From positions 183,421 to 207,420 of the forward strand of contig PHCV01000003.1 in the NCBI GenBank assembly GCA_002842395.1: a stretch of 24,000 nt of DNA. Direction: 5' to 3'. A model generated the notes under the pieces. The model saw only the letters and a list, made by a program, of their open reading frames with translations. It made no database searches and was not told the DNA's origin. Positions 6,754-22,602 of the stretch are shown piece by piece. The position numbers were made by a program, and so were the translations under genes. This stretch comes from Betaproteobacteria bacterium HGW-Betaproteobacteria-11 (GTDB lineage: Bacteria; Pseudomonadota; Gammaproteobacteria; Burkholderiales; Rhodocyclaceae). Position 1 is the first letter of the stretch. The number at the start of each line of letters is the position of its first letter.

Positions 6754-7230
6754 CTAATGATCCGTGTGCCCATCGCGCATGCCACCACCGCATTGATGCG
6801 TTGCGCCTTTACCTGCCTTGGTTTTCGGCTTGAGCGGCGCGAATTGGAACCCCTCCGCCTCCTGCCCGGGCATCTTGAGAAAAATCACAACCCCGGTTTT
6901 GGCATTCATGACGAACTCGCCTTTGCCTTTCAATGTATTTTCTCCGCCAGGCGTGAGCTTGACCTCCACCACCCTCTTGCCATTCTTTACCTTGGCCATG
7001 GCTTCGGCCCCCGCAGTCATTTGCGGCACGTTGCCGTGATCGGTGAGATAGACGTTCAGTTCGCCCGGAGTGTTGATCATCAACTCCATGTGATACGGCC
7101 CGGACATCCGCACCTGCCCACCATGGGGCGACGGAATGCTGTCCAGATATTCATTGCTATGCGCCAGGGCTGCACCAGTAAAAAACGCGAAAAAAACTGT
7201 GGTCAGAAGGGCTCTCGTTAACGAGTTCAT
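6754..7230 (-). CDS. Small periplasmic His/Met-rich protein, putative metal binding
   Basis: The track ORF starts at TTG 7236. ATG 7230 is preceded by GGAG with an 8-nt spacer. Signal peptide MNSLTRALLTTVFFAFFTGAALA, with predicted mature N-terminus HSNEY. Motif HGGQVRMSGPYHMELM and C-terminal tail THQCGGGMRDGHTDH. A perfect minus-strand TATAAT lies at 7290..7285 in the AT-rich upstream spacer, but I found no convincing -35. Confidence 0.65.
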   Translation of the reverse strand: MNSLTRALLTTVFFAFFTGAALAHSNEYLDSIPSPHGGQVRMSGPYHMELMINTPGELNVYLTDHGNVPQMTAGAEAMAKVKNGKRVVEVKLTPGGENTLKGKGEFVMNAKTGVVIFLKMPGQEAEGFQFAPLKPKTKAGKGATHQCGGGMRDGHTDH

Positions 7231-7379
7231 TTTCAATGCTCCTCATGGAATAGAAACGCCATAGTTAAAAAAACATTACCGAGTATTATAATAATAATGC
7301 TTAACGATCCCCTTGGTACTAAGCTTGTTGTTTCTAGTGTAGTGCTTGCGAATTGTCGAAACCGTCAAAACACCTCGGC

Positions 7380-7402
7380 GTCATTCCCGCGGAAGCGGGA
7401 AT
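7380..7402. repeat. Palindromic repeat unit GTCATTCCCGC-GGAA-GCGGGAAT
   Basis: Perfect 8-bp stem with a 4-nt loop (ATTCCCGC GGAA GCGGGAAT, 7383..7402). It has the form ATTCCC-N8-GGGAAT. Related copies sit at 6646..6668 (degenerate) and 6689..6710 (inverted). Confidence 0.7.
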
Positions 7403-7472
7403 CCAGTACGTTCCTGGGTCCCCGCTTCGGATGGATTGACCGCCCCAGTACTAAAATTTACCAAGCGCCACA

Positions 7473-9482
7473 CTAGTGCACGTGATCCCCCGCAGGTGGC
7501 AGAATTTCCTTTTCCCGTTTCAATTGCTCGAGCTGTACAAAGAGCAGGGCGAAGTCATTCCATCCCGACGGTTCCTGACTGGGCAGCCAGCGCGCCCGCA
7601 AGTAGCCGAAGCGGTCGACCAGCAGTTCCAGATGATCCGGCACCACGCCGGCTCCATACAGATCCGGATCTTTGATGGTGCGTCGGAATTCGGCATAGGT
7701 CGTTGCTGCTTCCCTGGCTCCTTCAATAGCGACCGGATAGGGAAGTTTCTTCAGCCATTGCTGATCGGGCAACTCGCCATTAACTGGAATAGCAATAACC
7801 TCCGCTCCAGAGGCACGGATTTTCGGGTAATTCGCCGCCAGGATTTCCATTCGCGCTCTCGATTCCGGCCACGAGAACAGCACCACGATGACCGCCTGCG
7901 TCTGGCGATAGTCCTTCAATGTACCGCTGCTGTCGTTTTGTGCAGCGAAAGAGAAATTCGGCGCCCCAAGACTGGCCTGCGGTCGGTTCGGCACCACCTG
8001 CGGCCGCAATGTCCGGCCTTCGTAGCCACGGGAAATCATATGGATGAAGTTAACCAGGTCCCAGCGATCGTCTTCGGTAAACCGGTCGCCAAATGGCGGC
8101 ATGCCGAACTGCGGAAAACCGGTCGTGATCCAATAGTAAAAATCACCTGCGGTATGTTGCTTGGTATGGGGCTCGGTGAGCAGATCAACCGGTTTTTTGG
8201 GTAGCGTCTTGGCCAGCGGCCCATCGCCTTTGGCCTGAAGTCCGTGACAAGCCGCACAGCTCTCCAGGAAAATCGTCTTGCCGCGATCGATCGAAATCGC
8301 ATCGAAAGCGACCGTGGTCGGCCGATAGGTAAAGGGGTCGGCCACTATCGTAATCCCATACAAGTAAAAACCCACGGTCGACAATCCCAGCACCCCGGCC
8401 AGAATTCGTCCGCGCCAGAGTGAACCCGGCAGGTAACGGCGCCACAGCGGATAGGCCAGCGTCATTAACAGCAATACCCCGGCAATGGTCAGGTTACGCG
8501 GCGTCGTCGAATCGAAGCCGAGCGTCGCATCCAGCGACCAGCGGAATGGATAGGGCCAGTTCTCGATACCATCATGTTTTCCTGGCAACGTCCCGACCAG
8601 GGCAGCGGCGATCAACACCAACAGAATGGCAAGGCCGAATTCGATCGCCACCAGGCGGCGCATCGCCACCCGCGCAGCCTCGCCTTCCCCGCCCTGCCCG
8701 AGCGCCGGCAAACGTTGCCTGACCGAGGCGGCAAGGGCAAGGATCAGCAGCAGCAAAAGCACCTTGGAAGTCAGCAGCCAGCCATAACGGGTCGCCACCA
8801 ATGAAGCGTAAACGGGCTCGATCTGGCTATAGCCGAGGACCAATCCGCTGGCTATCACCACAACCATAGCCGGCAAGGCCATGCGGGAGAAGCGGTGGAG
8901 GGCTATCAGCGCACCCTGCCCGGCATCGACCGAAACTCCTTTTTCGCCAAGCAGAATGGCGAGAAAGGCGGGCAAACCACCGAACCAGATTCCGGCGAAA
9001 AGAATGTGCCCGGCAAACAGTGCCATGGTCAGCGCCGATCCTTCCGCTGCCGGATGCCCGGCCAGGGCATTGACGCCCAGCGTCAGCGCCGCGAAAGCCG
9101 CCTGGAACAGATAGCGCGCGGGAACACTGGGTGCCCGAACGACATAAAACGTCACGGCGAAAAGCAGCACGGCCAGGATTTCGCGCACCAGCCAGATCTT
9201 TCCCAACTCGAGATTCTCGATCAATCCGAGCCAGGCGGAAGGCTGTATGAAGCTTTTCGCCTCTCCGGTGATCTGGGCTGCCGCCGCAGCCAAAACGCCG
9301 ACCAGCGCCAACGGGAGTACCCCGGCCAGCCATGGCAACAACCGCTCGAGCCGAATCAGCCACTCGTTCTTGGAGCTATCGCGGCGAAACCCGGCAAAGA
9401 CAAAAAACAGCGGACTTCCCAACAGCACCGTGTTGGCGGAAATCTCCAGCCAACGCGCCAACATGCCAAACAAATCGATCAT
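7473..9482 (-). CDS. copD: CopD-family copper transport membrane protein fused to a c-type cytochrome domain and a Cys-less redoxin (AhpC/TlpA-like) domain
   Basis: 669 aa. The N-terminal ~300 aa are poly-TM and CopD-like (ALAGHPAAEG...FAGHILFAGIWFGGL), followed by two further TM helices. Next come the heme-c motif ESCAACHG and a downstream GMPPF (candidate Met ligand). The C-terminal ~160 aa show a redoxin-fold pattern (AVIVVLFSWPESRARMEIL...GAEVIAIPVNG...HLELLVDRFGYLRARW) with no CxxC. The ATG overlaps the copC stop by 1 nt (TAATG). Confidence 0.8.
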   Translation of the reverse strand: MIDLFGMLARWLEISANTVLLGSPLFFVFAGFRRDSSKNEWLIRLERLLPWLAGVLPLALVGVLAAAAAQITGEAKSFIQPSAWLGLIENLELGKIWLVREILAVLLFAVTFYVVRAPSVPARYLFQAAFAALTLGVNALAGHPAAEGSALTMALFAGHILFAGIWFGGLPAFLAILLGEKGVSVDAGQGALIALHRFSRMALPAMVVVIASGLVLGYSQIEPVYASLVATRYGWLLTSKVLLLLLILALAASVRQRLPALGQGGEGEAARVAMRRLVAIEFGLAILLVLIAAALVGTLPGKHDGIENWPYPFRWSLDATLGFDSTTPRNLTIAGVLLLMTLAYPLWRRYLPGSLWRGRILAGVLGLSTVGFYLYGITIVADPFTYRPTTVAFDAISIDRGKTIFLESCAACHGLQAKGDGPLAKTLPKKPVDLLTEPHTKQHTAGDFYYWITTGFPQFGMPPFGDRFTEDDRWDLVNFIHMISRGYEGRTLRPQVVPNRPQASLGAPNFSFAAQNDSSGTLKDYRQTQAVIVVLFSWPESRARMEILAANYPKIRASGAEVIAIPVNGELPDQQWLKKLPYPVAIEGAREAATTYAEFRRTIKDPDLYGAGVVPDHLELLVDRFGYLRARWLPSQEPSGWNDFALLFVQLEQLKREKEILPPAGDHVH

Positions 9483-9886
9483 TATTTCGTCGTCGCGTGC
9501 TCTTTCAACTCGAAATCATAGGAAGACTCGACGACATGCCCATCCACCGAAAGGACACGAAATTTGACTACGTACTTTCCCGGTTTCAGCTCGGGAAGCG
9601 GCAGCACCATGAGCTTCGGCTCTTTTTCCGGAACAGTGAATTTTTCGGCGGTCACCGGTTTGTCTGTGGCATCGACAACAGTAAGCCGGGTATAAGCCGG
9701 TTCGATCTGTTCGTTGAACCACAACTTGACCTGATGCGGCGCACGGGTCAGCACGGCACGGCGAGCCGGCTCGGCCTTGACCAGCAAAGCATGGGCCTGG
9801 GCGCCCAACGGCAACCCCATGGCGAGTGCCGCGCTGACGGCAATCAAAAACGGTTTGCGCAAGCAAAAAGAAACTGGTCGATTCAT
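9482..9886 (-). CDS. copC: CopC periplasmic copper-binding protein
   Basis: 134 aa. Signal peptide ending AQA, then mature N-terminal His (HALLVKAEP). Motifs LWFNE..., GKYVVKFRVLSVDGH (D-x-H ligand motif). There is no Met-rich Cu(I) loop, which is consistent with a Cu(II)-only CopC. Confidence 0.85.
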   Translation of the reverse strand: MNRPVSFCLRKPFLIAVSAALAMGLPLGAQAHALLVKAEPARRAVLTRAPHQVKLWFNEQIEPAYTRLTVVDATDKPVTAEKFTVPEKEPKLMVLPLPELKPGKYVVKFRVLSVDGHVVESSYDFELKEHATTK

Positions 9887-9912
9887 GGCCTCACTCCCAA
9901 GGAAAACTTAGC

Positions 9913-9932
9913 GAGGCTTCCACGGAAGCCTC
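9913..9932 (-). terminator. Weak intrinsic-terminator-like hairpin downstream of the EthD-like gene
   Basis: GAGGCTTCC-AC-GGAAGCCTC, an effective ~8-bp stem. On the minus strand it is followed by GCTAAGTTTTCC. It lies between the EthD stop (9948) and the copC start (9886). Confidence 0.35.
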
Positions 9933-9947
9933 ACGAGACGAAAACGG

Positions 9948-10271
9948 TCAGAGGTTGACCGTGACCTCTTCAGCAACCAGGAAGACCGGGGCGCCGCCTG
10001 AAGAAATCTGCACCGCATGAGCCACCGTTTCCTGCCCACCCGGTGAGGCCGCGCAGGCCTGCAAAGCCTCCATCGACGGGAAATGGACTTCGGCAACGCG
10101 GTAGTACGGCGGATCGCCCGCCGGCGAACCCAGCACCTTCGAAGCGACAATCTTGCTCGCCCCAGCCAGTTTCGCCACCGCCATCGGCACATGCTCGGCC
10201 TGGTAAACCTGCTCGAATACCGCCACATCCTTCGGGGTCGGGTAAATCACCATCAGCTTGACTGCACTCAT
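9948..10271 (-). CDS. EthD-family protein (small alpha+beta barrel, TIGR02118-like)
   Basis: The track ORF is 9948..10544. I place the start at ATG 10271 (MSAVKLMVIYPTPKD...), preceded by GAGAGGAG. The 107-aa product matches the EthD pattern: MVIYP.P.D...F...Y...HVP...KL.G......KV.....G..PYY.VAE..F.S.EALQA...SP.GQ. The upstream 91 codons are Arg-rich and overlap the esterase gene. Confidence 0.75.
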   Translation of the reverse strand: MSAVKLMVIYPTPKDVAVFEQVYQAEHVPMAVAKLAGASKIVASKVLGSPAGDPPYYRVAEVHFPSMEALQACAASPGGQETVAHAVQISSGGAPVFLVAEEVTVNL

Positions 10272-10308
10272 ACTCACTCCTCTCTTTTCTGGTTTGAACG
10301 TAATGGAC

Positions 10309-11211
10309 TCATTTAGTTGCAACCGCCGATGACAATAACCGCTCGACGATTGCGACACCCATCCCCGGCCAATCCGAATGCCCACCCTGCTTTTCGCAAT
10401 AGGATAGTGGCGCGGCGCAACCCGGATAGACCAGACAACCCTCTTTATCACGCTGAGGCGGTGACGACAAATCACAGTGGTTACAAACCGCCCACCAGCT
10501 CGCCGTTTCCTTGCCCCATCCAGGAAAAAGACGGTCGTCGCCATTATGCATGATCATCACCGGCAGCGGCACCGGACAAGCATACGCATCGAGATCCTTG
10601 TGGGTGAACCCGGCCGCACTCGGCGCAATACCGGCCACAGTGCCACGGGTTTCCGGCAGTACCGCAACGGCATGCGAGGCCGTGCCGCCATCGGAATGGC
10701 CGGTAGCGTAAACCCGCTTGAGATCTATGCACCAGCGGGCAGAGACATCGGCCGGGACTTTCGCCAGTTGAGAAACCACTTCGGGTGAGAGCTTTCTGTG
10801 CGCGGTATAAGCTACCACGAACCCGCGTCGCGTCGCCTCGGTCGTCAGGTGGGTGAATGCCTCGTTTTTTTTCGCGCTCGCACCTGCGGGCGGGAAAACG
10901 ACGAGCAGGGGATGAGCAAAGTCAGGACGGTAGTTCGATGGGGTGCGGACGTTGTAGCCGATGCCTTCGGGGGTCTGCAGATCATCGCTGGCTCCGGCCT
11001 GCCCCATCTTGCTGCCGACCGGGCAGCCGGCGGCATCAGCCGCCGCCGGATATTCGGCGGCAGCGATCGCCATCCCTTCCACCGGCCCCGGCGGGCTACA
11101 GGCGGACATCATGCCGAGGACGGCTGCCGAGAGCCCAAGCCATCGAGGCCAGCACCGGCGCCTCAGCGAAGGCCATCGCCCGGACGGAGCGAAGAAATTA
11201 TCCGAACACAT
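10309..11211 (-). CDS. Alpha/beta-hydrolase esterase (PHB-depolymerase/LpqC-like family), probable lipoprotein
   Basis: 300 aa. Signal and lipobox-like LGLSAAVLGMMSAC. Family pattern YNVRTPSNYRPDFAHPLLVVFPPAG...RRGFVVAY. Nucleophile elbow GHSDGG in IDLKRVYATGHSDGGTAS. The start codon has only a weak SD, so the N-terminus is uncertain. Confidence 0.6.
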   Translation of the reverse strand: MCSDNFFAPSGRWPSLRRRCWPRWLGLSAAVLGMMSACSPPGPVEGMAIAAAEYPAAADAAGCPVGSKMGQAGASDDLQTPEGIGYNVRTPSNYRPDFAHPLLVVFPPAGASAKKNEAFTHLTTEATRRGFVVAYTAHRKLSPEVVSQLAKVPADVSARWCIDLKRVYATGHSDGGTASHAVAVLPETRGTVAGIAPSAAGFTHKDLDAYACPVPLPVMIMHNGDDRLFPGWGKETASWWAVCNHCDLSSPPQRDKEGCLVYPGCAAPLSYCEKQGGHSDWPGMGVAIVERLLSSAVATK

Positions 11212-11254
11212 CGCGCCCCGGATCGCTACTGAATGCGCATAGATGCCGGGTGAG

Positions 11255-11854
11255 TCAAGCCTCTGGCGCAGACTTCGATTCTTTCTTGTCTTTATTGCGC
11301 ATGCCCGAATACCAGAAGAAAATTCCGCCGATGATCAAAATAGCCAAAAAGGGCAGGTATTTGGTGTAGCGGGAAACGCCCTCCGCAACGCTGAACGGAA
11401 AGCGGGCCTCGATCTTTTCCTTGCCGTCGTAGGCGGTGATGATACCAATGAACTTCTCCGGATTCGAGTAGGTATTTTCGAACGTTAGACTACCGGTCGA
11501 ATAGAGGGTCGGCGGAATATAAAGGACCGTAACCGCATCCAGGTTTGGATTGGCTTCACCCGTATCCCTGATGATGTGGATCTCGAGTGGCATTGAACGT
11601 AGTTCCTGATTGATGGCATCGAGGGCAATGATGGTATGGCCGGTTCGCGGAATATCATCGCAAAAGGCCTTGCTCCCCGACGCTTCGGGTTGATAGCCGG
11701 TGAAATTCATCTGATACTTGCCGATGGTGAGTTTGCACACGTTATCCTCGCCACTGACCGCACCATGTGCGCTAGCCAGTCCCGGAAGCAAAGAGCAGAA
11801 TGTAGCGACAAGAACAATGACGGTGGCGACTGACTTGGAATGGCTACTGTTCAC
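11255..11854 (-). CDS. Secreted, C-terminally membrane-anchored protein; paralog of 15493..16137; PmoD/AmoD/AmoE-like architecture
   Basis: 199 aa, GTG start with GGAGAG 6 nt upstream. Signal peptide ending ASA, mature N-terminus HGAVSGE. Conserved block CKLTIGKYQMNFTGYQP...FCDDIP...LDAINQELRSMPLEI...EARFPFSV shared with the other paralog. C-terminal TM helix YLPFLAILIIGGIFFWY plus a basic tail. The position directly after the B subunit matches where amoD/amoE/pmoD sit in known operons. Confidence 0.7.
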   Translation of the reverse strand: MNSSHSKSVATVIVLVATFCSLLPGLASAHGAVSGEDNVCKLTIGKYQMNFTGYQPEASGSKAFCDDIPRTGHTIIALDAINQELRSMPLEIHIIRDTGEANPNLDAVTVLYIPPTLYSTGSLTFENTYSNPEKFIGIITAYDGKEKIEARFPFSVAEGVSRYTKYLPFLAILIIGGIFFWYSGMRNKDKKESKSAPEA

Positions 11855-11872
11855 TTTTGTCTCTCCAAAAGA

Positions 11873-11898
11873 AGTGAGGGGCCTCTCGACCCCTCACT
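11873..11898 (-). terminator. Rho-independent terminator after the monooxygenase B subunit
   Basis: Perfect 9-bp stem AGTGAGGGG / CCCCTCACT with an 8-nt loop. On the minus strand it is followed directly by TCTTTTGG. The U-tract runs into the GGAGAG SD of the next gene. Confidence 0.6.
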
Positions 11899-11961
11899 AT
11901 ACATCACGTAAGCAGACTATGAACTACTCATATAGATGTTGAAACATACTCTGGCTCCGAG

Positions 11962-13257
11962 TTACTTCCCAGCACCGAAGAAAGGCACAATCGGGCCCGA
12001 AAGCGTCGAGATGCTGCGATTGCCATCGGCGTCGAAAAAGAACACCAAGGCGCCGACGCGGTTATCCGGGTCGTTGATCAGACTCGTCAGACGTTCGACT
12101 TCCCAGGCCGCATCGGTCGCTTCTAGCATCATGGTGCGCGATTCTCCTGGAGCGATCGGGGTGTTGTCGCCGACTTTCAGTCCGCTTGGCGGTATGAGAT
12201 CCTTTGGAAACAGCGGATCGATATTGGCCATCGCCACAGGAACGTCGTGATTGACGAAGCGCAGACCAGCCGTCAAGAATTCACCGACCTGAACCGGCTT
12301 GGGCCCGTTGTTGGTGAGTGTGACGTTGATCTTCATCGAGCGGCCCGGAACATCGTAGGTCGCACGCTTGACCGCAATCTTCACTGAAGCGGCCTGTTTC
12401 GGCAATGGCTCCCATGTCGCTTCGCCTCCTTGCAATGGTACCGTGCGTGGATACTTGGCTTCCGCCCAGTTGGCGCCGGCGACCACGATAACCAGCGTGC
12501 CAACCATGAATGCGGCACCCCACATCCGGTCGCCACGGGTAATCAGCAGGTCGTCGTTGCCTGCCTCGGTGGCCAGGAAACGCGGCATCAGTAAGGGTTT
12601 ACGCAACCACCACAGCATATATACCAGCGCAATGGCGAACCACAGCGCATGCCATTTGAACACGGTCCCCACGCCCCAAGTTTCGAGGTTTTCGATATGC
12701 GTACCATCGATGGTATCGATTGGAAGCCTGAAGTCCTCCCTATTTCCGGTGATAGCGAGCCAGTTTCCTGGCCCCAGCAACGGTCCCGCGCCCTCGACGT
12801 TCAACATCGGGTGCACATGGTGATTCCCGGGAATTCGAGCCTTGTACACTGACCTGAAGGTGTAATCACGGTCGAGTTCAAGCTGGCCAGATTGAATTGC
12901 CGGGACATCGCCAATCCAACTCTCCGTTCTGGCCAGAACCGGTCCGGGCGTACCATTGCCGAGGAACACCCGTTTCGGTGGCGGCAGGTTGCCCGGCCAC
13001 TCCGGAAAGAGACGGAACGTGCCGCTCACCACGATCTCGCCATTGACGGGAACCTCGGTAGTATTCCACTTCATGTCATAGAAGTGCACCGTTCGCATGC
13101 GAAGGAACGGTTCCTGGTTCCGCTCGCCGTGCGCCAGAACCTGACCTGACACCGACGCCAGGAGCCCCAGACCAACCACCAGGCGCATCTGTCTGGCATA
13201 TTTTTTCAAGAATTTAAACATCGAAAACCCCCTTCTTTCGTTTTGTATGCTGGTCAT
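11962..13257 (-). CDS. amoB: Copper membrane monooxygenase subunit B (AmoB/PmoB family)
   Basis: 431 aa; an alternative start at ATG 13221 also has an SD. Signal peptide ...SGQVLA, then HGERNQEPFLRMRTVHFYDMKW (compare the PmoB mature N-terminus HGEKSQAAFMRMRTIHWYD). HxH ligand motif in PGNHHVHPMLNVEG. Two central TM helices (WHALWFAIALVYMLWW..., AAFMVGTLVIVVAG). C-terminal cupredoxin domain ending DAAWEVERLTSLINDPDNRVGALVFFFDADGN. Confidence 0.93.
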   Translation of the reverse strand: MTSIQNERRGFSMFKFLKKYARQMRLVVGLGLLASVSGQVLAHGERNQEPFLRMRTVHFYDMKWNTTEVPVNGEIVVSGTFRLFPEWPGNLPPPKRVFLGNGTPGPVLARTESWIGDVPAIQSGQLELDRDYTFRSVYKARIPGNHHVHPMLNVEGAGPLLGPGNWLAITGNREDFRLPIDTIDGTHIENLETWGVGTVFKWHALWFAIALVYMLWWLRKPLLMPRFLATEAGNDDLLITRGDRMWGAAFMVGTLVIVVAGANWAEAKYPRTVPLQGGEATWEPLPKQAASVKIAVKRATYDVPGRSMKINVTLTNNGPKPVQVGEFLTAGLRFVNHDVPVAMANIDPLFPKDLIPPSGLKVGDNTPIAPGESRTMMLEATDAAWEVERLTSLINDPDNRVGALVFFFDADGNRSISTLSGPIVPFFGAGK

Positions 13258-13268
13258 GAAACCACCCC

Positions 13269-14084
13269 TTAAATCGCTTCAACCGAGCGCTTGGGATCGG
13301 CCTTCAGGCCCATAAGTGTCTTCATCTTGTTCGGTACGGTAACTACCTTGGTCATCAGCATGCCGAAATACCACCAGGCGATATACATCAGCATGCAGAG
13401 GAAGCCGGCAAAGGCCGAAGCCACCCAGGCCGAGTGACCACCGAAGGTGCGCAAAGTACCGCGCTCGATGAAGCGCAGATACTCGGGGGTTGCCGTACGG
13501 GTAAAGGCATAACCGATGTAGTCGGCAACCGAGACCAGCGAGCCCATAACTTCGACTGGCAGATGATAAGCCGCCAGCATTACCCAGTTCGAAGGATAGA
13601 ACAAAATGGCATAGGCAATTGCACCCGTTAGCGAAGTCAGCAGGAAGTTGCCGGTAAGCATGAGTGTGACATCGAGAACGATTGCACCGGGAATATAGGT
13701 TGCCGGCCAAACCAGGCTGTACGGAAAATACGACCAGTCATAGAAGCCAAATTTCCGGTTCATCCACTCGCCGAAAATAAGGCAGACCACGGCAAAGGTG
13801 GCGCCGAAGGGGAGTCGCAGCTTCTCCCAGAACACATATTGCAACGCCGCCGGGAAGGTGATGGTGATCACAGGCGCCAGCGTCACCCAATATTGACGAT
13901 CTTTCCAGTCCACCCAGAAGTCCCAGTCACCCACCAGCAACATGACATGCAAATGAAACGCAGCGGTCACTGCCAGAAAAAGAATGATGGCAACGATGAT
14001 GTCGAACCGCCTCGACAACGCCGCGCTCCATTTCGACCATTTGACGCCGTAGATATCTACGGTCTCATGCGCGTTACTAGCCAT
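13269..14084 (-). CDS. amoA: Copper membrane monooxygenase subunit A (AmoA/PmoA family)
   Basis: The track ORF starts at TTG 14150. ATG 14084 is preceded by AAGGGGAGAA. The 271-aa product has hallmark blocks HLHVMLLVGDWDFWVDWKDRQYW, LPFGATFAVVCLIFGEW, TRTATPEYLRFIERGTLRTFGGH. Confidence 0.93.
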   Translation of the reverse strand: MASNAHETVDIYGVKWSKWSAALSRRFDIIVAIILFLAVTAAFHLHVMLLVGDWDFWVDWKDRQYWVTLAPVITITFPAALQYVFWEKLRLPFGATFAVVCLIFGEWMNRKFGFYDWSYFPYSLVWPATYIPGAIVLDVTLMLTGNFLLTSLTGAIAYAILFYPSNWVMLAAYHLPVEVMGSLVSVADYIGYAFTRTATPEYLRFIERGTLRTFGGHSAWVASAFAGFLCMLMYIAWWYFGMLMTKVVTVPNKMKTLMGLKADPKRSVEAI

Positions 14085-14266
14085 TTTAAAGGTTCTCCCC
14101 TTATATCGATTTAGACAACCTGCCTTGCAGCGAAAAAAACGCGACGACAACTATCACTCGCGCCACAATTGCATCCACAGGTGCAATAACACTCCAGACT
14201 TACTACCCTGCTACCAATCAGACAGCAACCTACTGTCCGATATTTCCCATAACTCGCAGGCAAACA

Positions 14267-14294
14267 CCCTGCCGGCCGTTAGCGGCCAGCAGGG
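14267..14294 (-). other. RNA stem-loop in the C-A intergenic spacer, 13 nt after the C-subunit stop
   Basis: CCCTGCCGGCCG-TTAG-CGGCCAGCAGGG: 11 bp plus one C/A mismatch. The downstream minus-strand sequence GTGTTTGCC is only a poor U-tract. It is therefore more likely a stabilising or processing hairpin, or a partial terminator, than a full terminator. Confidence 0.4.
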
Positions 14295-14307
14295 TATCCG
14301 GCGGCAA

Positions 14308-15072
14308 TTACGCCGCAGCCTTTTGCGCGTCGATGCGCTGCATTACCTCGACGATGTGCATCATGATTTGCGCGGCCAGACCACCCAGAGCCAGCACGGA
14401 CCAACCAAGGACGACAAAGCCCCAGTGCAGCGGGGCGGAGAAGAACTCCTCCATCATCCAGAAAGCATGACCCCACTCGTTGAAACCAAGGTTCGGCAGA
14501 ATCATCAACGGGCCGGTGACGGCAAGCACGAAGGGGATCGAAATCCGCTCGGCGAACTTCGGCAAACGGGTCATCGCGTAGAGAAACGAACCGACACCGA
14601 AGGTGACGTAGAACGGCATCGTGCCATAAAACAGCACGATATGGCTGGGGGTAAAGCTGGTATCACGCACCACCGTCTGATGCCACGAAGCATCCTGCTC
14701 GGCAAAGAAGCTACCGGCAAAATAGACCACGAAGGCATATGAGAAGATAAACAGTACCAGCGTGAAATAACGGCGCAACTCCTCTTCCGGCTTCAACTGA
14801 TCCAGATGACGGTCACGGGTGACCCACAACCAAGACCACAAACCGGCCCATAAAGCAATCATCAACGGCAACTCAACCTTAAACAGCATCATCCAGGTCG
14901 CATCGAACTCGGGCAGCGTCGAATCCAATCCGGTTTTCCAGGCAAAAGTCTGCTGAAACCAGCGATAGAACACCATCACTGCCAACGTGCCAACAAAACA
15001 AATCGTCGGCCACTTGTACTGCACAAAGCGCCCGGGGGAACGATCCGCGCTGCTTGCTAGTATTGCACTCAT
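14308..15072 (-). CDS. amoC: Copper membrane monooxygenase subunit C (AmoC/PmoC family)
   Basis: 254 aa, SD AAGGAGAG 5 nt upstream. Conserved ligand-bearing blocks are present: FAEQDASWHQTVVRDTSFTPSH (Asp/His/His site) and NEWGHAFWMMEEFFSAPLHW (Asn/His/His site). Confidence 0.93.
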   Translation of the reverse strand: MSAILASSADRSPGRFVQYKWPTICFVGTLAVMVFYRWFQQTFAWKTGLDSTLPEFDATWMMLFKVELPLMIALWAGLWSWLWVTRDRHLDQLKPEEELRRYFTLVLFIFSYAFVVYFAGSFFAEQDASWHQTVVRDTSFTPSHIVLFYGTMPFYVTFGVGSFLYAMTRLPKFAERISIPFVLAVTGPLMILPNLGFNEWGHAFWMMEEFFSAPLHWGFVVLGWSVLALGGLAAQIMMHIVEVMQRIDAQKAAA

Positions 15073-15492
15073 GTTAACTCTCCTTTAGGCATGTTGAATT
15101 GATTTACCAACCTACTACTCACTACTTAGTGCTGACTTAGCAACATGTTTTTTTTGATTACACGTGAAAGGTAGCTCCCTTACCGCATCCCGGCAGCCCG
15201 CTTGTACCGGCTACCAGCCTGCGCTTTACTGCCTTACCGCCCTAACTCAAGCTCGAAAGAAAACCAATGAAAGCCAATCCGGGCGGTGCACTCTCAACCC
15301 CTGTACGTTGCCACCCTCCATTGGCGGACTATCTTTGATTCCCTTTCCCTTCAAACCACACGAAATCCTCAAAGACACTCTTTTCTATTTTTACCCCTCC
15401 TTGACAAGTCTAGTGGAATGACGACGCAAATGACTTGATCTAACGCAAACAGATGCGACAAAACGCCGCATTCAGGCAGGCCGCCGCCACAC
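15073..15492 (-). promoter_or_regulatory. 420-nt non-coding spacer upstream of the C subunit (promoter and long leader; elements unresolved)
   Basis: No credible ORF. Relatively AT-rich, with an A8 run on the minus strand (15148..15155) and the 9-nt direct repeat GCGGTAAGG twice, 54 nt apart (15178..15186 and 15232..15240 on the plus strand). I could not find a convincing -35/-10 or -24/-12 pair by eye. Confidence 0.3.
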
Positions 15493-16137
15493 TCAGCCAA
15501 CCGCCGAGGATTTGCTGCGGCGCACCACGGCGGCGCGGCGATCGGAGTACCAATACAATACGCCAACCACCACAATGATGAACAGGTATTTGCCGTAAAC
15601 GTCCAAGAGTGAAGGCTGTGGCGCCACATTGAAGGGGAAGCGCGCCTCCAGCGGTTGCTTGCCGTTATGGGCGGTGACGATACCGACGAACCGTCCCGGC
15701 TGGTCGAAGGTGTACTGGAAGCGAATCGTTCCCGAGGGGTAGATTTTCGGCGGCAGGTGGACAATAGGGTTAGTCACGGCATCTTCCACCGACCCGCTCT
15801 CCGGATAAGGGACGATGCTCACTTCAATGGGCATCTCGCGCAATTTCTGGTCAATTGCGTCGAGATTGACCAGGGTATAGCCCAGATCCGGAATATCCTG
15901 GCAAAACTCCTTGTGCCCCCCGCCATCCGTGGGATGCACATGATCCTCGTGGCGATCGGCGTGCTCATCTTCCCTCGGCTGATAGCCGGTGAATTGCATC
16001 GTGTAGGGACCGAGGAAGAGTTTGCAGATACCTTCGTCGACGCGCACAGCGCCATGCGCCCGCACCTGTAAGGGCAGCAGCAGGCCCAGCAGAAACAGGA
16101 AGAATGTGGCGGCTCGCGCCCCGAATAGCCGATCCAT
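15493..16137 (-). CDS. Secreted, C-terminally membrane-anchored protein with His-rich insertion; paralog of 11255..11854; PmoD/AmoD-like architecture
   Basis: 214 aa, SD AAGGGGTGAG. Signal peptide ending VRA, mature N-terminus HGAVRVDE. Shares CKLFLGPYTMQFTGYQP, FCQDIP, LDAIDQKLREMPIEV and EARFPFNV with the paralog. It carries an extra REDEHADRHEDHVHPTDGGGHK loop and a C-terminal TM helix YLFIIVVVGVLYWY. Confidence 0.7.
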   Translation of the reverse strand: MDRLFGARAATFFLFLLGLLLPLQVRAHGAVRVDEGICKLFLGPYTMQFTGYQPREDEHADRHEDHVHPTDGGGHKEFCQDIPDLGYTLVNLDAIDQKLREMPIEVSIVPYPESGSVEDAVTNPIVHLPPKIYPSGTIRFQYTFDQPGRFVGIVTAHNGKQPLEARFPFNVAPQPSLLDVYGKYLFIIVVVGVLYWYSDRRAAVVRRSKSSAVG

Positions 16138-16214
16138 GACTCACCCCTTGTCGTTATATAAGGAAAACATCGAATGGCATCTTACGCCAACAGGTTCCCG
16201 GTTACCATTGCCGG

Positions 16215-17747
16215 ATGAATCTGTTGCGCACGCTCGCCACCGTCTCCGGCATGACCCTACTTTCCCGCCTGCTCGGCTTCGTGCGCGACTTCGTCATCGC
16301 CCGCAGTTTTGGCGCCGGAGCGATGACCGATGCCTTCTTCGTCGCCTTCCGCCTACCCAACCTGCTGCGCCGCCTGTTCGCCGAGGGCGCTTTTTCGCAG
16401 GCCTTCGTGCCGGTACTGGCGGAGTACCGCGCGCGCTGCGGCGAGATGGCGACCCGCACCCTCATCGACCGGGTGGCGACCTGGCTGTTTCTGATCCTGG
16501 TCGTCGTCAGCGCCCTCGGCATGGTGACCGCGCCGATCCTGATCGCCGTCTTCGCTCCCGGCTTTGTGGCCGATGCCGACAAATTCCAGCTCACCGTGCA
16601 ACTGACCCGCATCACCTTTCCCTACATCCTCTTCATGTCGCTGGTGGCGCTGGCCGCCGGCATTCTGAACACCTGGAGCCGCTTTACCCTGCCGGCCTTC
16701 ACGCCGGTGCTGCTCAATCTGTCGATGATCGGCATGGCGCTGTTCGCCGCACCGTGGTTCGAGCCGCCGATTCTGGCGCTGGGCTGGGCAGTGGTGATCG
16801 GCGGCACGCTGCAACTGGGGATTCAACTACCGGCGCTGGCCCGGATCGGCCTGTTGCCGCGTTTCGACCCGGTCTGGCGCGATGCCGGCGTACGGCGCAT
16901 CCTGAAACTGATGGCGCCGGCCGTGCTTGGCGTTTCCGTCTCCCAGGTAAGCCTCTTGATCAACACCATTTTCGCCTCGTTTCTGGAAAGCGGTAGCGTC
17001 TCCTGGCTCTATTATGCCGATCGGATGATGGAATTCCCGGCCGGCCTGCTCGGCGCGGCGCTGGGCACCATTCTGCTGCCAAGTCTGGCGCGCACGCATG
17101 CCCGCGGCGAGACGACCGAATTCTCCGCCTTGCTCGACTGGGGCTTGCGCCTGACCCTGATGCTGACGCTGCCCGCCGCGCTCGCTCTGGCGCTGCTGGC
17201 GGTGCCGCTGCTGGCGACCTTGTTCCAGCATGGCGCCTTCACCGTCACCGATGTGCTGCGCACGCGTGAAGCGCTGGTCGCCTACTCGATCGGGCTCTCC
17301 GGGCTGATCCTGGTCAAGGTGCTGGCGCCCGGCTTCTATGCCCGCCAGGACATTCGCACGCCGGTGAAAATCGCCCTCGTCACCCTGGCCCTGACGCAGC
17401 TAATGAATCTGGCCTTCATCGGCTGGCTCAAGCATGCCGGGTTGGCATTGTCGATCGGGCTGGCCTCCTGCGTCAATGCCGGCCTGCTCTGGCGCGGCCT
17501 GCGCCAGCGCGGGGTCTATCTGCCACAGCCCGGCTGGGGCGGCTTTCTGTTGAAACTCGGCGTGGCGCTGGTGGTGCTCGCCGCTGTGCTCTGGTTTTTC
17601 TCCGGCGCGGATGTCCACTGGCTGGTAATGCCGGGCCGGCAACGGCTGACTCAGCTCGGCTTCCTCGTCGGCGCGGGCATGTTCAGTTACTTCGCCACGC
17701 TGGGTCTGCTCGGCTTTCGCTTGAAGGACTTTCGCCGCCGCGGCTGA
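16215..17747 (+). CDS. murJ: Lipid II flippase MurJ (MviN)
   Basis: 510 aa. Canonical N-terminus [68 protein letters not shown], with about 14 TM helices. Confidence 0.95.
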
Positions 17748-17844
17748 CTCCGGGTTGGCATCCGGACGAAACGTTCCCGCAGGCGACCCGCAGGTAGTGC
17801 AAAGCAAGCAAAGTCGGCGCTGGCGAGACGGCGAACACATCGGG

Positions 17845-18708
17845 TCAGCGCAACAGGAACAGCACCAACACCAGCCAGCCGAGGCTCGCCGCCAGCAGAT
17901 GCGGATCGGCGAGCAGTTCCTGCGCCGGATCACCGCCGCCACCGTGACGATGCAGCCGCCACAGGTAACGCAGCATGCCGTAGAGGACGAAGGGGACAGT
18001 GGCAATCAGCGCGTGCGTGCCATGCAGGGCCACGGTTTCGGCGCTGACGGTATAGAGCGCGTAGGAAATCACCGTGCCGGCGGCGGCGATGCCGATGAAC
18101 TGGTCGAGCATCGGCTCGGTGTAATGTTCCAGCACCCGGCGGTGTCCGGCCGAGGCGTCGAGCAGGATGTTGAGCTCGGCGCGACGCTTGGCAAAGCCGA
18201 GGAACAGCGTCAGCATCAGGCCGCAGAGCAGCAGCCAGTGCGAGGGGGCGATACCGATGCCGAGCGTGCCCGCGAGGATGCGCAGCATGAAACCGGCGGC
18301 GATGATGAAGACATCGAGGATCACCACATGCTTGAGGCCGCCGCTGTAGGCGAGATTCATCAGCACATAGACGAGATAAATCCATGGCGCGGAACCGGCA
18401 TGGAGCACGGCGAGCGTGCCGCCGGCGAACAGGCAGGCGAGCGCCAGGGTCAGCGCCGCGCTGGTACCAACGGTGCCGGAAGCCAGTGGCCGCAGGCGCT
18501 TTTTCGGGTGCACCCGATCCTGCTCGCGATCGGCCAGATCGTTCAGCACATAGACCGCCGAGGAGAGCAGGCAGAAGGCGGCAAACGCGGCCAGCGCCTG
18601 GAAGAGCAAGGCCGGATCGCGCCAGGCGTGGCCGAACAACAGGCCGACGAAGACGAAGCCGTTTTTCAGCCACTGTTGCGGCCGCAGCAGGCGAATCAGC
18701 GGCGGCAT
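17845..18708 (-). CDS. UbiA-family prenyltransferase, decaprenyl-phosphate phosphoribosyltransferase-like
   Basis: 287 aa, poly-TM. N-terminus LLRPQQWLKNGFVFVGLLF and Asp-rich motif YVLNDLADREQDRVHPKKRLRPLASG, both typical of the DPPR-synthase branch of UbiA. Confidence 0.8.
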   Translation of the reverse strand: MPPLIRLLRPQQWLKNGFVFVGLLFGHAWRDPALLFQALAAFAAFCLLSSAVYVLNDLADREQDRVHPKKRLRPLASGTVGTSAALTLALACLFAGGTLAVLHAGSAPWIYLVYVLMNLAYSGGLKHVVILDVFIIAAGFMLRILAGTLGIGIAPSHWLLLCGLMLTLFLGFAKRRAELNILLDASAGHRRVLEHYTEPMLDQFIGIAAAGTVISYALYTVSAETVALHGTHALIATVPFVLYGMLRYLWRLHRHGGGGDPAQELLADPHLLAASLGWLVLVLFLLR

Positions 18709-20228
18709 GCTTCACCCGGGAAATAGCGGTCGCAGAAATAGCACGCGGTTTGCGGCAGCCAGGCCGGCAAGGCATAGTACCTGCGCTTGGCCTCGGCCAG
18801 AATGCCGTCGCGATAGGCCGGATAGAGGAAACCTTCACCCTTCACCCGCCAGAAACGGGCGCCGCGCACGCTGAAACTGTCGATTTCGACCTGGCGGAAA
18901 TACGGCCGGTATTCGGCCGGATCGGGGACGGACTTGCGCAACACCAGGATGTTGCGGCCATCGAGCGCGCGAAAATCGGTGAGGATGTCGTCGTGCCGGG
19001 CGTGGCTCGAAGCCAGGCCGAAGACGATGAAATATTGGCGCGCATCGTAGCCCAGGGTCACCGCGTTCGAATAGCCGTCCATCGCCAGTACCCAGCCGTT
19101 GTCCCGGTAAGGCGCGAGCTCCTGCAAAATTGCCTGATGCTCGACGGTCAGCACCAGACCATCGTAGAAGCCGTACTTCTGCCAGGTTTCCAGCGGCAGG
19201 CGCGCCACCCCCATGATCGCCACCATATGCAGCAAGGCAAAGGCGATGAAGAAGCGCAGCAGCTTGCGCAGCGTCTCCGGCGCCAGGCGCAGCGCCGTCC
19301 ACAGCAGGGCGAAGGGAATGAAGGCGAGCAGCCAGTGGAGGCCGATCTGCTTGATGGGCGAAAGCGCGGCGAACAGCGCCAGCGGCACCCAGGCCAGCAC
19401 GCCGAGGGAAGCGCAGGCGGGAAAGTCGGCGCTGGCGGGACGCCGAAAACTCATCGCCGTGGCCCCCCGGCGGCGTAGCGCGAGCCAGAGCACCGGCGGC
19501 GTCAGCACATAGAGCAGGGTGACGGCGTAGAGCAGCGGCGTGCGCCACGAGAGCCCGGCATCCTCGTTGCGATTGACGAAGTTGAACATGTAGTTCGGCC
19601 AGCAATGCCCGGCATTCCACCAGGCCATCAGCGCCAGCGCCGGAAGGGTCAGCGCATAGCACAGCGCGAGGCCGGCATAGGCACGCGGCCGGCGGCGCAG
19701 CAGCACGTCGATGAGATAAGCAAATCCCAGCAGCGCGGCGAAGTATTTGGAGAGCACGGCGCCGGCCAGCAGCAGGCCGGAAATGAAATACCAGCGCAGG
19801 TCGTCATCGCGCGCCGCGCGCAACCAGGCCAGACCCGAACCCACCGCGAAATAGACCAGCGGCGTATCGGTGGTGATGAAGATGTTCCAGACATTGACCG
19901 GCGCCAAGAGGATCAGCGCCGCGATACCATAACGCTGCGCGGCGCCAAGCCGGGGTGCCAGAGCAGTCAAAGCCCAAGCCACGGCCAGTGACAGGAGCGC
20001 AGGCAGCAGAACCGCCGGCAGGCGCAGCCAGAGTTCCCGATCGCCCCAGTGGAGCAAGGCCGCCAGCCACCAGCCGATCATCGGCGGGTGATCGTAAAAA
20101 CCCCAGTCGGGCCGCCAGCCCCACCAGATGAAGTAGGCTTCGTCGCCGGTGATCGGGGTCGCTTGCGCCAGCCAGAGCCGAAAGCCGAGCGTCACCGCCA
20201 GCAGGATGGCGAACAGGCGGGCGCTCAT
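18696..20228 (-). CDS. GT-C fold glycosyltransferase (ArnT/PMT, GT39/GT83-like)
   Basis: 510 aa, poly-TM. First-loop DE motif in ITGDEAYFIWWGW, plus a soluble C-terminal domain. The 3' end overlaps the UbiA-family gene start by 13 nt. Confidence 0.8.
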   Translation of the reverse strand: MSARLFAILLAVTLGFRLWLAQATPITGDEAYFIWWGWRPDWGFYDHPPMIGWWLAALLHWGDRELWLRLPAVLLPALLSLAVAWALTALAPRLGAAQRYGIAALILLAPVNVWNIFITTDTPLVYFAVGSGLAWLRAARDDDLRWYFISGLLLAGAVLSKYFAALLGFAYLIDVLLRRRPRAYAGLALCYALTLPALALMAWWNAGHCWPNYMFNFVNRNEDAGLSWRTPLLYAVTLLYVLTPPVLWLALRRRGATAMSFRRPASADFPACASLGVLAWVPLALFAALSPIKQIGLHWLLAFIPFALLWTALRLAPETLRKLLRFFIAFALLHMVAIMGVARLPLETWQKYGFYDGLVLTVEHQAILQELAPYRDNGWVLAMDGYSNAVTLGYDARQYFIVFGLASSHARHDDILTDFRALDGRNILVLRKSVPDPAEYRPYFRQVEIDSFSVRGARFWRVKGEGFLYPAYRDGILAEAKRRYYALPAWLPQTACYFCDRYFPGEACRR

Positions 20229-21276
20229 CGCGAGGTTGCCGCACCGCGGTTGCCAGAATGTCGAGCACTGTCAGCGTGTCTTCCCAGCCGAGGCAGGCAT
20301 CGGTCACCGAAACGCCGTATTCGAGCGGCTGCCCGGCGACGATATCCTGACGCCCTTCCTTGAGATTGGATTCGACCATTACGCCGATGATCCGCGCATC
20401 GCCGCCGGCGATCTGGGCGCCGACATCGCGCGCCACGTCGACCTGCCGCTTGAACTGCTTGTTGCTGTTGGCATGCGAGAAATCGATCATCAGCCGTGCC
20501 GCGAGGCCCGACTTGCCCAGATCGGCACAGGCCGCCTCGACCGCCGGCGCGTCGTAGTTGGGCGACTTGCCACCGCGCAGGATGACATGGCAATCCTCGT
20601 TGCCGTTGGTCGACACGATCGCCGAATGGCCGGCCTTGGTCACCGAGAGGAAATGATGCGGACTGGCCGCCGACTTGATTGCATCGACGGCGATACGGAT
20701 GTTGCCGTCGGTGCCATTCTTGAAGCCGACCGGGCAGGACAGCCCCGAGGCCAGCTCGCGGTGGATCTGCGACTCGGTGGTGCGCGCGCCGATGGCGCCC
20801 CAGCTGATCAGGTCGGCCGTGTACTGCGGGGTGATGACATCGAGGAACTCGGTGCCGCAGGGCAGGCCCAGTTCGTTGATCTGCCACAACAACTGACGCG
20901 CCAAGCGCAGGCCATCGTTGATCCTGAAACTGCCATCCATCTGCGGATCGTTGATCAGCCCCTTCCAGCCGACCGTGGTGCGCGGCTTCTCGAAATACAC
21001 CCGCATCAGGAGGATCAGCTCCTCGCCGAAGCGCTCGCACTCGGCCTTGAGCTTCGCCGCATAGTCCAGCGCCGCATCGGCATCGTTGATCGAGCAGGGG
21101 CCGACCACCACCACCAGCCGGTCGTCCATGCCGTGCAGCACGCGATGCACGGCCTGCCTCGCCTGCCAAGTGGTTTCAGCGGTCTTTTCGGTGGGCGGAA
21201 ACTCGCGCAGCAGATGGGCTGGCGGCAATAGTTCCTTGATCTCGCGGATGCGAACGTCGTCGGTTACTCGGTGCAT
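19804..21276 (-). CDS. aroG: 3-deoxy-7-phosphoheptulonate (DAHP) synthase, type I-alpha, with an anomalous ~140-codon 3' extension into the next gene
   Basis: Start placed at ATG 21276 (MHRVTDDVRIREIKELLPP, which lines up with the E. coli AroG N-terminus as I recall it). Blocks VVVGPCSI, MRVYFEKPRTTVGWKGLINDP, GARTTESQIHRELASGLSCPVGFKNGTDG, IDFSHANS, TDACLGWEDT. Homology ends near codon 350 (about 20227), but the frame stays open to 19804. See the finding at 19804..20229. Confidence 0.85.
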   Translation of the reverse strand: MHRVTDDVRIREIKELLPPAHLLREFPPTEKTAETTWQARQAVHRVLHGMDDRLVVVVGPCSINDADAALDYAAKLKAECERFGEELILLMRVYFEKPRTTVGWKGLINDPQMDGSFRINDGLRLARQLLWQINELGLPCGTEFLDVITPQYTADLISWGAIGARTTESQIHRELASGLSCPVGFKNGTDGNIRIAVDAIKSAASPHHFLSVTKAGHSAIVSTNGNEDCHVILRGGKSPNYDAPAVEAACADLGKSGLAARLMIDFSHANSNKQFKRQVDVARDVGAQIAGGDARIIGVMVESNLKEGRQDIVAGQPLEYGVSVTDACLGWEDTLTVLDILATAVRQPRDERPPVRHPAGGDARLSALAGASDPDHRRRSLLHLVGLAARLGFLRSPADDRLVAGGLAPLGRSGTLAAPAGGSAACAPVTGRGLGFDCSGTPAWRRAALWYRGADPLGAGQCLEHLHHHRYAAGLFRGGFGSGLVARGAR

Positions 21277-22577: not shown

Positions 22578-22602
22578 ATTCTCGAACACCCGCCCCCCTT
22601 CG

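Follow-up and report, generated by a model that had tools for sequence, protein, structure and literature searches.

A putative hydrocarbon-type copper membrane monooxygenase and its accessory module in a Rhodocyclaceae genome

Results

The xmoCAB operon and its module

We analysed a 24-kb stretch of contig PHCV01000003.1 from the genome of Betaproteobacteria bacterium HGW-Betaproteobacteria-11 (positions 183,421 to 207,420, hereafter the window), and its gene content was read from its large open reading frames (ORFs). The window carries a three-gene operon, xmoC, xmoA and xmoB (Table 1), that encodes the subunits of a copper membrane monooxygenase (CuMMO). The initial annotation, made from the sequence alone, had described three consecutive minus-strand homologs of AmoC/PmoC, AmoA/PmoA and AmoB/PmoB, and all three indeed pass the curated NCBIfam cut-offs. 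The bacterial ammonia monooxygenase (AMO) models of this collection (AmoC_BACT, AmoA_BACT and AmoB_BACT) are the top-scoring ones, with E-values of 1e-101 to 1e-154 and scores of 358.7 bits for XmoC (cut-off 319), 337.9 bits for XmoA (cut-off 290) and 514.6 bits for XmoB (cut-off 336). Against TIGR03080, XmoA scores 301 bits, which is under the cut-off of 318. The Pfam families AmoC, AMO and Monooxygenase_B are assigned to the C, A and B subunits on the identical contig. An ENA contig agrees with window positions 7430-20234 at 100% identity. The three proteins match GenBank entries PKO84333-84335 exactly, XmoA being PKO84334, and together with the flanking hypothetical proteins they make up the series PKO84332-84337, which has exact matches in the public collection. 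In GenBank, subunits A, B and C each bear the name 'methane monooxygenase/ammonia monooxygenase subunit', which stems from automatic annotation.

The operon is complete within positions 11962-15072, the limits set by the initial annotation, but it is only the core of a conserved module of about 9.4 kb (6754-16137), all of which lies on the minus strand. Two gene starts deserve a comment. An alternative gene call for xmoB gives a protein of 419 aa with its start at 13221, and the TTG start at 14150 that a mechanical ORF listing offered for xmoA makes that gene too long and was rejected as an artefact. The ribosome-binding site 5' of xmoC, AAAGGAGAG, is kept in four genomes. A scan of the minus strand 5' of xmoC found no convincing sigma-70 promoter, and a search with Rfam found no RNA families in the window. 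Directly 3' of xmoB, a consensus scan detected a hairpin that would act as a transcription terminator.

Several loci of the comparison set, designated by L numbers, recur below. L001 belongs to a Rhodocyclales metagenome-assembled genome (MAG) from Californian groundwater and L092 to a Rugosibacter sp. MAG. In these two and in a third locus, an element TTGACTTGATATAAATCAA, which resembles a -35 box plus a palindrome, is found 5' of xmoC (L092 5959-6243, L001 8834-9124, L084 880-1158). The element is barely recognisable in the window, and the xmoC leader is about 130 nt longer there.

Table 1. Features of the xmo module in the window, in the order of transcription (TM, transmembrane; PHB, polyhydroxybutyrate)
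Feature	Position	Strand	Description
Upstream pmoD-like gene	15493-16137	minus	214 aa; GenBank hypothetical protein PKO84336; orthologs 5' of xmoC in L001 and L092
xmoC	14308-15072	minus	254 aa; NCBIfam AmoC_BACT; carries CuC (Asp/His/His) and CuD (Asn/His/His) ligands
xmoA	13269-14084	minus	271 aa; NCBIfam AmoA_BACT
xmoB	11962-13257	minus	431 aa; NCBIfam AmoB_BACT; signal peptide; CuB ligand set
Intrinsic-terminator-like hairpin	11873-11898	minus	11 pairs (7 G-C), T-rich tail; directly 3' of xmoB; consensus scan
Downstream pmoD-like gene	11255-11854	minus	199 aa; matches PmoD crystal structure 6cpd, E 5e-19
Lipoprotein serine hydrolase	10309-11211	minus	300 aa; feruloyl-esterase / PHB-depolymerase fold
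EthD-family gene	9948-10271	minus	107 aa; NCBIfam TIGR02118, 56.9 bits, cut-off 30.5
copC	9482-9886	minus	134 aa; periplasmic copper-binding; Pfam CopC, E 1.3e-22
CopD-cytochrome c-thioredoxin-fold fusion	7473-9482	minus	669 aa; Pfam CopD, Cytochrom_C, AhpC-TSA
Small secreted protein	6754-7236	minus	160 aa; His/Cys-rich C-terminus HQCGGGMRDGHTDH

Copper ligands and selection

The ligands by which a CuMMO is recognised, those of CuB in XmoB and those of CuC and CuD in XmoC, are present, and alignment to solved structures of particulate methane monooxygenase (pMMO) and of AMO bears out the ligand motifs that the initial annotation had named. In XmoB, the predicted signal peptide ends just before His43, the counterpart of His33 in the Methylococcus capsulatus protein. 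The pair His147 and His149 corresponds to His137 and His139 of M. capsulatus PmoB and to the equivalent residues of the AMO B subunits (the M. capsulatus residue numbers are those that we take to be in use for the pMMO ligands). His58 of XmoB aligns with M. capsulatus His48, but the position of its bis-His partner, His72, is occupied by an arginine. In XmoC, the motifs EQDASWHQ...TPSH and NEWGHAFW...APLHW match those of AmoC in the solved structures 9leg and 9pxf residue by residue.

All ORFs of the operon are intact and equal in length to their orthologs. In comparison with L001, the ratio of nonsynonymous to synonymous substitution rates (dN/dS) is 0.10 for xmoC, 0.06 for xmoA and 0.11 for xmoB, values that are approximate because the synonymous sites are near saturation. 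The operon is under purifying selection. Taken together, the intact frames, the retained metal ligands, the low dN/dS and the conserved ribosome-binding site make it close to certain, as far as sequence can tell, that the enzyme is functional, as the initial annotation had supposed.

Placement among copper membrane monooxygenases

Identities of XmoA come from a protein search and from scanning a single genome for each GTDB species. Neighbour-joining trees were calculated from Kimura-corrected distances with 100 bootstraps, one for the combined C, A and B subunits (CAB) of 69 operons over 835 columns and the other for 94 XmoA sequences over 233 columns; both were built without references from gammaproteobacterial ammonia-oxidising bacteria (AOB), comammox, NC10, Verrucomicrobia and Actinobacteria. 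The CAB tree contains a split with 94% support that has pMMO and Pxm on one side and, on the other, a group with the window operon, which also holds the Cycloclasticus, ET-HIRO-type, Burkholderiales/Methylibium and Xanthobacteraceae operons. The window operon and L001 are joined with 100% support, and the betaproteobacterial subclade has 96% support in the XmoA tree. When the AMO of betaproteobacterial AOB (PDB 9pxf) was added, it joined Pxm in 81 of 100 bootstraps, which rules it out as a sister of the clade under study; this AMO is about equidistant (43-48%) from the other groups.

The identities draw the same divisions. Mean CAB identity to the window operon is 81% for L001, 64-68% for the operons of Bradyrhizobium, of an Alphaproteobacteria/Hyphomicrobium group and of two groups of lake Gammaproteobacteria, and 49-58% for the other hydrocarbon-type groups. 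It is 43-48% for pMMO, Pxm and AMO, and 43-46% if only the pMMO of Alpha- and Gammaproteobacteria are counted. For XmoA alone, the closest relatives are unnamed sequences and a Rhodocyclales MAG at 77-95%, with soil Alphaproteobacteria MAGs and one Hyphomicrobium MAG at 64-71%, seven Bradyrhizobium species at 64-65% and lake and groundwater Gammaproteobacteria MAGs at 58-69%. The PmoA of methanotrophs are about 50% identical. Over about 225 trimmed columns, XmoA has 51% identity to AmoA of betaproteobacterial AOB (9pxf), the value for M. capsulatus PmoA being 48%. Both agree well with the earlier estimate by eye that XmoA is about half identical to either. The same estimate had taken the motif RLPFGAT for a PmoA-like trait. 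This was mistaken, as the form is AmoA-like and M. capsulatus PmoA has RLPWGAT instead. Among proteins of known structure, XmoA matches AMO and pMMO nearly equally (275 and 263 bits), and the best match of XmoB is M. capsulatus PmoB (385 bits versus 347 for AMO).

The operon is thus a member of a clade that stands apart from pMMO, Pxm and AMO. Its sequences place it in the hydrocarbon-type group of CuMMOs, on the side of the enzymes associated with ethane and ethylene and not on that of pMMO, Pxm or AMO. It follows from the CAB identities and the trees that the operon nests in no clade of established substrate among those compared, and the nesting at high identity within a characterised clade that, according to the initial annotation, would have made it an ordinary operon was not found. 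One further observation concerns the diversity of the group. A single contig of an Alphaproteobacteria MAG, CAWDMD010000007.1, carries two CuMMO operons about 25 kb apart (L007 and L025), and their XmoA are 71% and 53% identical to that of the window.

Accessory genes of the module

The operon is bracketed by two genes for PmoD-like proteins, which are paralogs with 41% identity. Both proteins have a signal peptide, a pair of Cys that is invariant in the alignment (C40 and C65) and a C-terminal TM helix, the hydrophobic segment of which is conserved; in the upstream one the Cys belong to a periplasmic domain. A homolog is found 3' of xmoB in most loci examined. The features of the PmoD family, namely a signal peptide, a cupredoxin-like periplasmic domain with two invariant Cys and a C-terminal TM helix, and the Cx7MxH ligand set that is required for its CuA site have been defined (Fisher 2018). 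Cx7MxH is absent from both copies in the window, where Met49 and His51 are replaced by Gln and Asn in the downstream protein and by Thr and Gln in the upstream one. Most of the orthologs compared have C-x8-M-H at this place, and the window copies have M-N (downstream) and M-Q (upstream). Hence, judged by their sequences, both proteins possess the features of the PmoD/AmoD family, yet they are without the CuA ligand set. The upstream protein also contains a His-rich insertion, REDEHADRHEDHVHPTDGGGH, that has no counterpart in its orthologs. The number of pmoD-like genes 5' of xmoC varies, L092 and apparently L001 having two and the window one.

The lipoprotein serine hydrolase (hereafter the esterase) gives weak matches to the NCBIfam models of polyhydroxyalkanoate depolymerases. 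Its AlphaFold2 model (pLDDT 82) is most similar, among Foldseek matches in the PDB, to feruloyl esterase, acetyl xylan esterase and PHB depolymerase. The lipobox Cys38, the triad Ser173/Asp226/His278 and eight Cys are invariant in the alignment. Many hydrocarbon-type loci have the gene at this same place, among them L001, L083, L084, L085, L087 and L092, but it adjoins none of the pMMO or Pxm operons among the loci compared, and the Bradyrhizobium operons are without it. We also considered the esterase as a general partner of CuMMOs and rejected the idea: the homolog of the comammox bacterium Ca. Nitrospira inopinata lies among lipid-biosynthesis genes and not beside amo. Because the Nitrospira homologs, which are about 48% identical, are found away from the amo genes, the family is not specific to CuMMOs. 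Its link to them is a recurrent association and not a rule.

The remaining genes differ in how widely they are shared. The EthD-family gene is limited to the betaproteobacterial subclade (L001, L084 and L092, with 87-90% identity), and copC is kept in the module throughout the clade. The architecture of the CopD-cytochrome c-thioredoxin-fold fusion recurs in the modules of Bradyrhizobium, Alphaproteobacteria and lake Gammaproteobacteria. As read from the sequence, the protein has the haem motif CAACH, and its AhpC/TSA-like domain has WPES in place of CxxC. Homologs of the small secreted protein are found 3' of copD in L001, L092, L007, L029 and L045. Neither this protein nor a 190-aa ORF has a match in Pfam, NCBIfam or the PDB.

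Host, flanking genes and composition

The genes on both sides of the module are housekeeping ones: murJ and genes for UbiA, a PMT_2 glycosyltransferase, 3-deoxy-D-arabino-heptulosonate 7-phosphate (DAHP) synthase, MaoC, EamA, a mutS-like protein, an M48 peptidase, a pterin dehydratase, rsgA and a WYL regulator. The closest relatives of MurJ are found in Sulfuritalea (83-84%), followed by Sulfurisoma and Ca. Nitricoxidivorans (78%); Sulfuritalea and Rugosibacter are relatives of the host. The gene order murJ, xmo module, mutS-like gene, M48 peptidase gene, rsgA and WYL regulator gene is common to the window, L001 and L092. Such a shared order means that the module was present in their common ancestor, and in the host it is chromosomal. 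The identity to L001 and L092 is 75-93% for the housekeeping genes and 73-83% for XmoC, XmoA and XmoB.

The composition of the module differs from that of its surroundings. The operon has a GC content of 54-57% and a GC content at third codon positions (GC3) of 0.68-0.71, whereas the flanks have 60-67% and 0.73-0.85. Over the entire module, GC3 is 0.63-0.73, versus 0.72-0.85 for most flanking housekeeping genes. The synonymous divergence of the module from L001 (dS of 1.5-1.9) is about twice that of murJ (0.76). The low GC3 hints at a foreign origin, but we do not conclude from it that the module was acquired by horizontal transfer, because it occupies the same site in three genomes and because the composition of membrane proteins confounds the comparison. 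The initial annotation had described the surrounding genome as far richer in GC than classical ammonia oxidisers or most methanotrophs. This argument is weak. The operon is lower in GC than its flanks, and a GC content of about 60-65% is ordinary for methanotrophs, e.g. M. capsulatus and Methylocystis.

Three ORFs of the flanks, 17755-18726 (plus strand), 20225-21169 (minus strand) and 22452-23621 (plus strand), were dismissed as antisense shadows on the grounds of GC3 and Pfam matches, the real genes being those of UbiA, DAHP synthase and EamA. The DAHP synthase ORF itself (19804-21408, minus strand) is without the stop that is found in the L092 ortholog after about residue 393, and it runs for about 140 codons, in another frame, into the PMT_2 glycosyltransferase gene (18696-20228, minus strand). 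Its excessive length is probably due to an assembly indel or a frameshift near 20,230-20,260.

Relatives with established physiology and gene context

The nearest relatives of the enzyme with established physiology belong to hosts that grow on ethane or ethylene, and their XmoA are 54-60% identical to that of the window. Haliea sp. ETY-M and ETY-NAG are ethylene-assimilating marine gammaproteobacteria (Suzuki et al. 2012). The enzyme of ETY-M, of which only the A subunit was compared, has 57.5% identity and lies on the same side of the split between pMMO and hydrocarbon-type enzymes in the XmoA tree, but it forms a separate clade whose relation to the window operon has less than 40% bootstrap support. 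Emo, a putative ethane monooxygenase, is the enzyme of ET-HIRO and ET-SHO, two Methylococcaceae that grow with ethane but not with methane (Knief 2015, PMC4678205). The Emo and Cycloclasticus enzymes belong to the same supergroup as the window operon, with 54-60% identity in XmoA and 51-53% in CAB. Their loci have a PmoD-like gene 3' of xmoB, as in the window, but no esterase or copCD genes adjoining, and the hosts come from marine hydrocarbon seeps.

Within the clade of operons that are 64-81% identical to that of the window, the neighbouring genes offer some indication of a pathway. Genes for ExaC, a propionate/acetate-CoA ligase, the acrylyl-CoA reductase AcuI and an OmpW porin adjoin the operon in two MAGs of soil Alphaproteobacteria (XmoA 71%). 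The ExaC protein matches the acetaldehyde dehydrogenase equivalog model at 937 bits (cut-off 900), and its gene also adjoins the operon in a Hyphomicrobium MAG (the ExaC-bearing loci are L083, L009 and L029). In the metagenomic contig L085 (XmoA 76%), a pyrroloquinoline quinone (PQQ) dehydrogenase of the methanol/ethanol family and a MoxJ-cytochrome c follow directly 3' of the module. These enzymes would catalyse the steps expected after the hydroxylation of a C2-C3 hydrocarbon. Such evidence is indirect, because the window has no neighbours of this kind, the PQQ enzyme is ambiguous between XoxF and PedH, and CuMMOs are promiscuous.

The modules of Bradyrhizobium (B. niftali, B. forestalis, B. 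frederickii and Ai1a-2; XmoA 64-70%, CAB 68%), which are of the type noted in Bradyrhizobium sp. ERR11 (Khadka 2018), share the grammar of the window module, i.e. the order C-A-B followed by the PmoD-like, CopC and CopD-cytochrome c fusion genes. They are without the esterase, the EthD gene and the upstream pmoD copy. In the B. niftali-type locus (L081/L082), the module lies between genes for a relaxase and a type IV coupling protein and the Trb/VirB genes, with an IS66 transposase. From these flanks it follows that the Bradyrhizobium modules reside on an integrative conjugative element, unlike the window module, which is chromosomal and syntenic in related genomes.

Discussion

The interpretation that we favour, with somewhat better than even confidence, is that the operon encodes a functional XmoCAB of the proteobacterial type that serves neither methane nor ammonia oxidation and that is probably a short-chain hydrocarbon monooxygenase. 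The initial annotation had offered short alkanes or alkenes as candidate substrates, and the phylogeny and the gene context of the clade make this the best-supported guess. It had also reported that hao, cycAB and the genes for methanol dehydrogenase and for alcohol, aldehyde or epoxide oxidation are missing, and a check of the large ORFs in the 24-kb window likewise revealed none. A number of observations weigh against our interpretation. In the window, in L001 and in L092, the operon has no genes for alcohol or aldehyde oxidation next to it. The PQQ dehydrogenase of L085 scores slightly better with XoxF than with PedH (413 versus 403 bits). XmoC is nearer to AMO than to pMMO (277 versus 243 bits), and only 2 of the 20 positions of its CuD loop depart from AmoC of betaproteobacterial AOB. 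Support for the deeper nodes within the hydrocarbon-type group is poor in the neighbour-joining trees (4-60% in that of XmoA), which makes a sister relation to the ethane and ethylene enzymes tentative. Homology cannot fix the physiological substrate, because CuMMOs are promiscuous, and a literature search returned no physiological data and no substrate for any member of the 64-81% clade.

According to the mechanism that we propose, XmoCAB would form a membrane trimer in which, as in other CuMMOs, one atom of O2 is inserted into a small hydrophobic substrate at the copper site of XmoC with electrons derived from quinol. The substrate would most likely be an alkane or alkene of the C2-C4 range, with ethane, propane and ethylene as candidates. 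The product, an alcohol or an epoxide, would pass to further oxidising enzymes whose genes lie in other parts of the genome. The supply or handling of copper, and possibly of electrons, would fall to CopC, the CopD-cytochrome c fusion and both PmoD-like proteins.

The initial annotation had left room for a cryptic ammonia or methane oxidiser, a suggestion that is disfavoured by the phylogeny. That the enzyme is a pMMO and its host a cryptic or facultative methanotroph in methane-rich groundwater is improbable. Such a host would fit the name of the MAG, in which HGW presumably refers to a study of Horonobe groundwater, which we take to be rich in methane. It would also fit the match of XmoB to PmoB and that of the L085 PQQ dehydrogenase, which is best, if narrowly, with XoxF (4mae). 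However, the CAB identity to the pMMO of Alpha- and Gammaproteobacteria is only 43-46%, the 94% split sets the operon apart from pMMO, XmoA is under the TIGR03080 cut-off, no methanol or formaldehyde pathway genes lie in the window, and the nearest relatives with established physiology neither oxidise methane nor grow on it. The clade furthermore includes nodule isolates of Bradyrhizobium, and we know of no methanotrophs among these. M. capsulatus Bath pMMO (1yew, 3rgb, 7ev9) has the same fold family and the same CuB, CuC and CuD ligands as the window enzyme, but it differs in its bis-His pair and belongs to a separate clade. It is highly improbable, likewise, that the operon encodes an AMO with which the host nitrifies or oxidises ammonia co-metabolically. 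Some traits do resemble those of the enzyme of betaproteobacterial AOB (9cl6, 9pxf, 9leg): there are three subunits with all the copper ligands, the NCBIfam AMO models score highest and their cut-offs are passed, XmoC is closest to AmoC of the solved AMO, with 54.5% identity and a near-identical CuC/CuD region, and the order C-A-B with pmoD/amoD-like, copC and copD genes recalls amoCABED-copCD (PMC13058606). On the other hand, the CAB identity to this AMO (47%) is no higher than that to other groups, and AMO groups with Pxm. Neither the window nor the flanks of those related loci whose neighbouring genes were annotated contain hao or cycAB, and in published surveys cycAB is confined to the AOB and comammox clades (PMC11135946). 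The paper that, by the HGW name, we presume to be the source of the MAG states that hydroxylamine dehydrogenase and AMO occur together in none of the genomes (PMC5520028).

The substrate may also belong to a class that is new to CuMMOs, for instance oxygenated, sulfur-containing or ester-forming compounds, with the lipoprotein esterase as a part of the pathway. We regard this as rather unlikely. Many hydrocarbon-type loci have kept the esterase and those of pMMO and Pxm have none, its triad and lipobox are invariant, the range of CuMMOs has been widened before by the finding that PmoCAB3 oxidises acetone (PMC8630023), and the location of the operon on an integrative conjugative element in Bradyrhizobium suggests an accessory, niche-specific trait. 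These points are set against the Nitrospira homologs of the esterase away from amo, the Bradyrhizobium operons that do without it and the fact that nothing speaks positively for any particular alternative. A narrower form of this idea appears doubtful to us, namely that the physiological substrate of the entire 64-81% clade lies outside methane, ammonia, C2-C4 alkanes, ethylene and acetone and is served by a dedicated accessory set, which may consist of PmoD proteins of the non-CuA kind, the periplasmic lipoprotein carboxylesterase and the CopD-cytochrome c-thioredoxin-fold fusion. Finally, the operon could be a decaying or silent relic. No pathway genes adjoin it in the window and no convincing sigma-70 promoter precedes xmoC, but a relic would hardly combine intact ORFs of conserved length, a dN/dS of 0.06-0.11, a full set of metal ligands, a conserved ribosome-binding site and a whole module kept in three related genomes, so that we give this explanation almost no credence.

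CuMMOs of unassigned function have been described in Bradyrhizobium sp. ERR11 and Solimonas (Khadka 2018, PMC6215863) and in Polaromonas, Rhodoferax and Rhodomicrobium (PMC8630023), and an expressed xmoCAB has already been reported from a groundwater Nevskia MAG. The enzymes of the alkane-utilising Rhodoferax and Polaromonas (Rochman et al. 2020, as cited in PMC8630023) have betaproteobacterial hosts, are CuMMOs of neither the methane nor the ammonia type and have a proposed role in oxidising short-chain alkanes. Our locus set contains no named sequence of either genus; its Burkholderiales/Methylibium group, a separate clade with 51% CAB identity to the window, may correspond to this type. A search of the literature found no paper that characterises the 64-81% clade or names a Sulfuritalea/Rugosibacter-like subclade, and the presumed source paper does not discuss the xmo operon (PMC5520028). 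The operon was deposited with a MAG in 2017, annotated automatically and left undiscussed, and its lineage is uncharacterised. The initial annotation was hence right to speak of a little-studied lineage, in so far as no substrate has been assigned in the clade, but the operon itself had been public since 2017 and related ones are already in the literature.

CuMMOs catalyse the first step in the oxidation of methane, ammonia and short-chain hydrocarbons, and their misassignment distorts inventories of the carbon and nitrogen cycles. The present operon is a case in point, as the NCBIfam equivalog models would name its C, A and B proteins subunits of a bacterial ammonia monooxygenase, a name that the phylogeny does not support. 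The clade is spread over groundwater, lakes, soils and the mobile elements of cultured Bradyrhizobium. Since these cultured isolates carry an enzyme that is 64-70% identical, the question of the substrate is directly testable. Should ethane, propane or ethylene prove to be the substrate, the Sulfuritalea/Rugosibacter-like bacteria of groundwater would have to be counted among the sinks of non-methane hydrocarbons already known.

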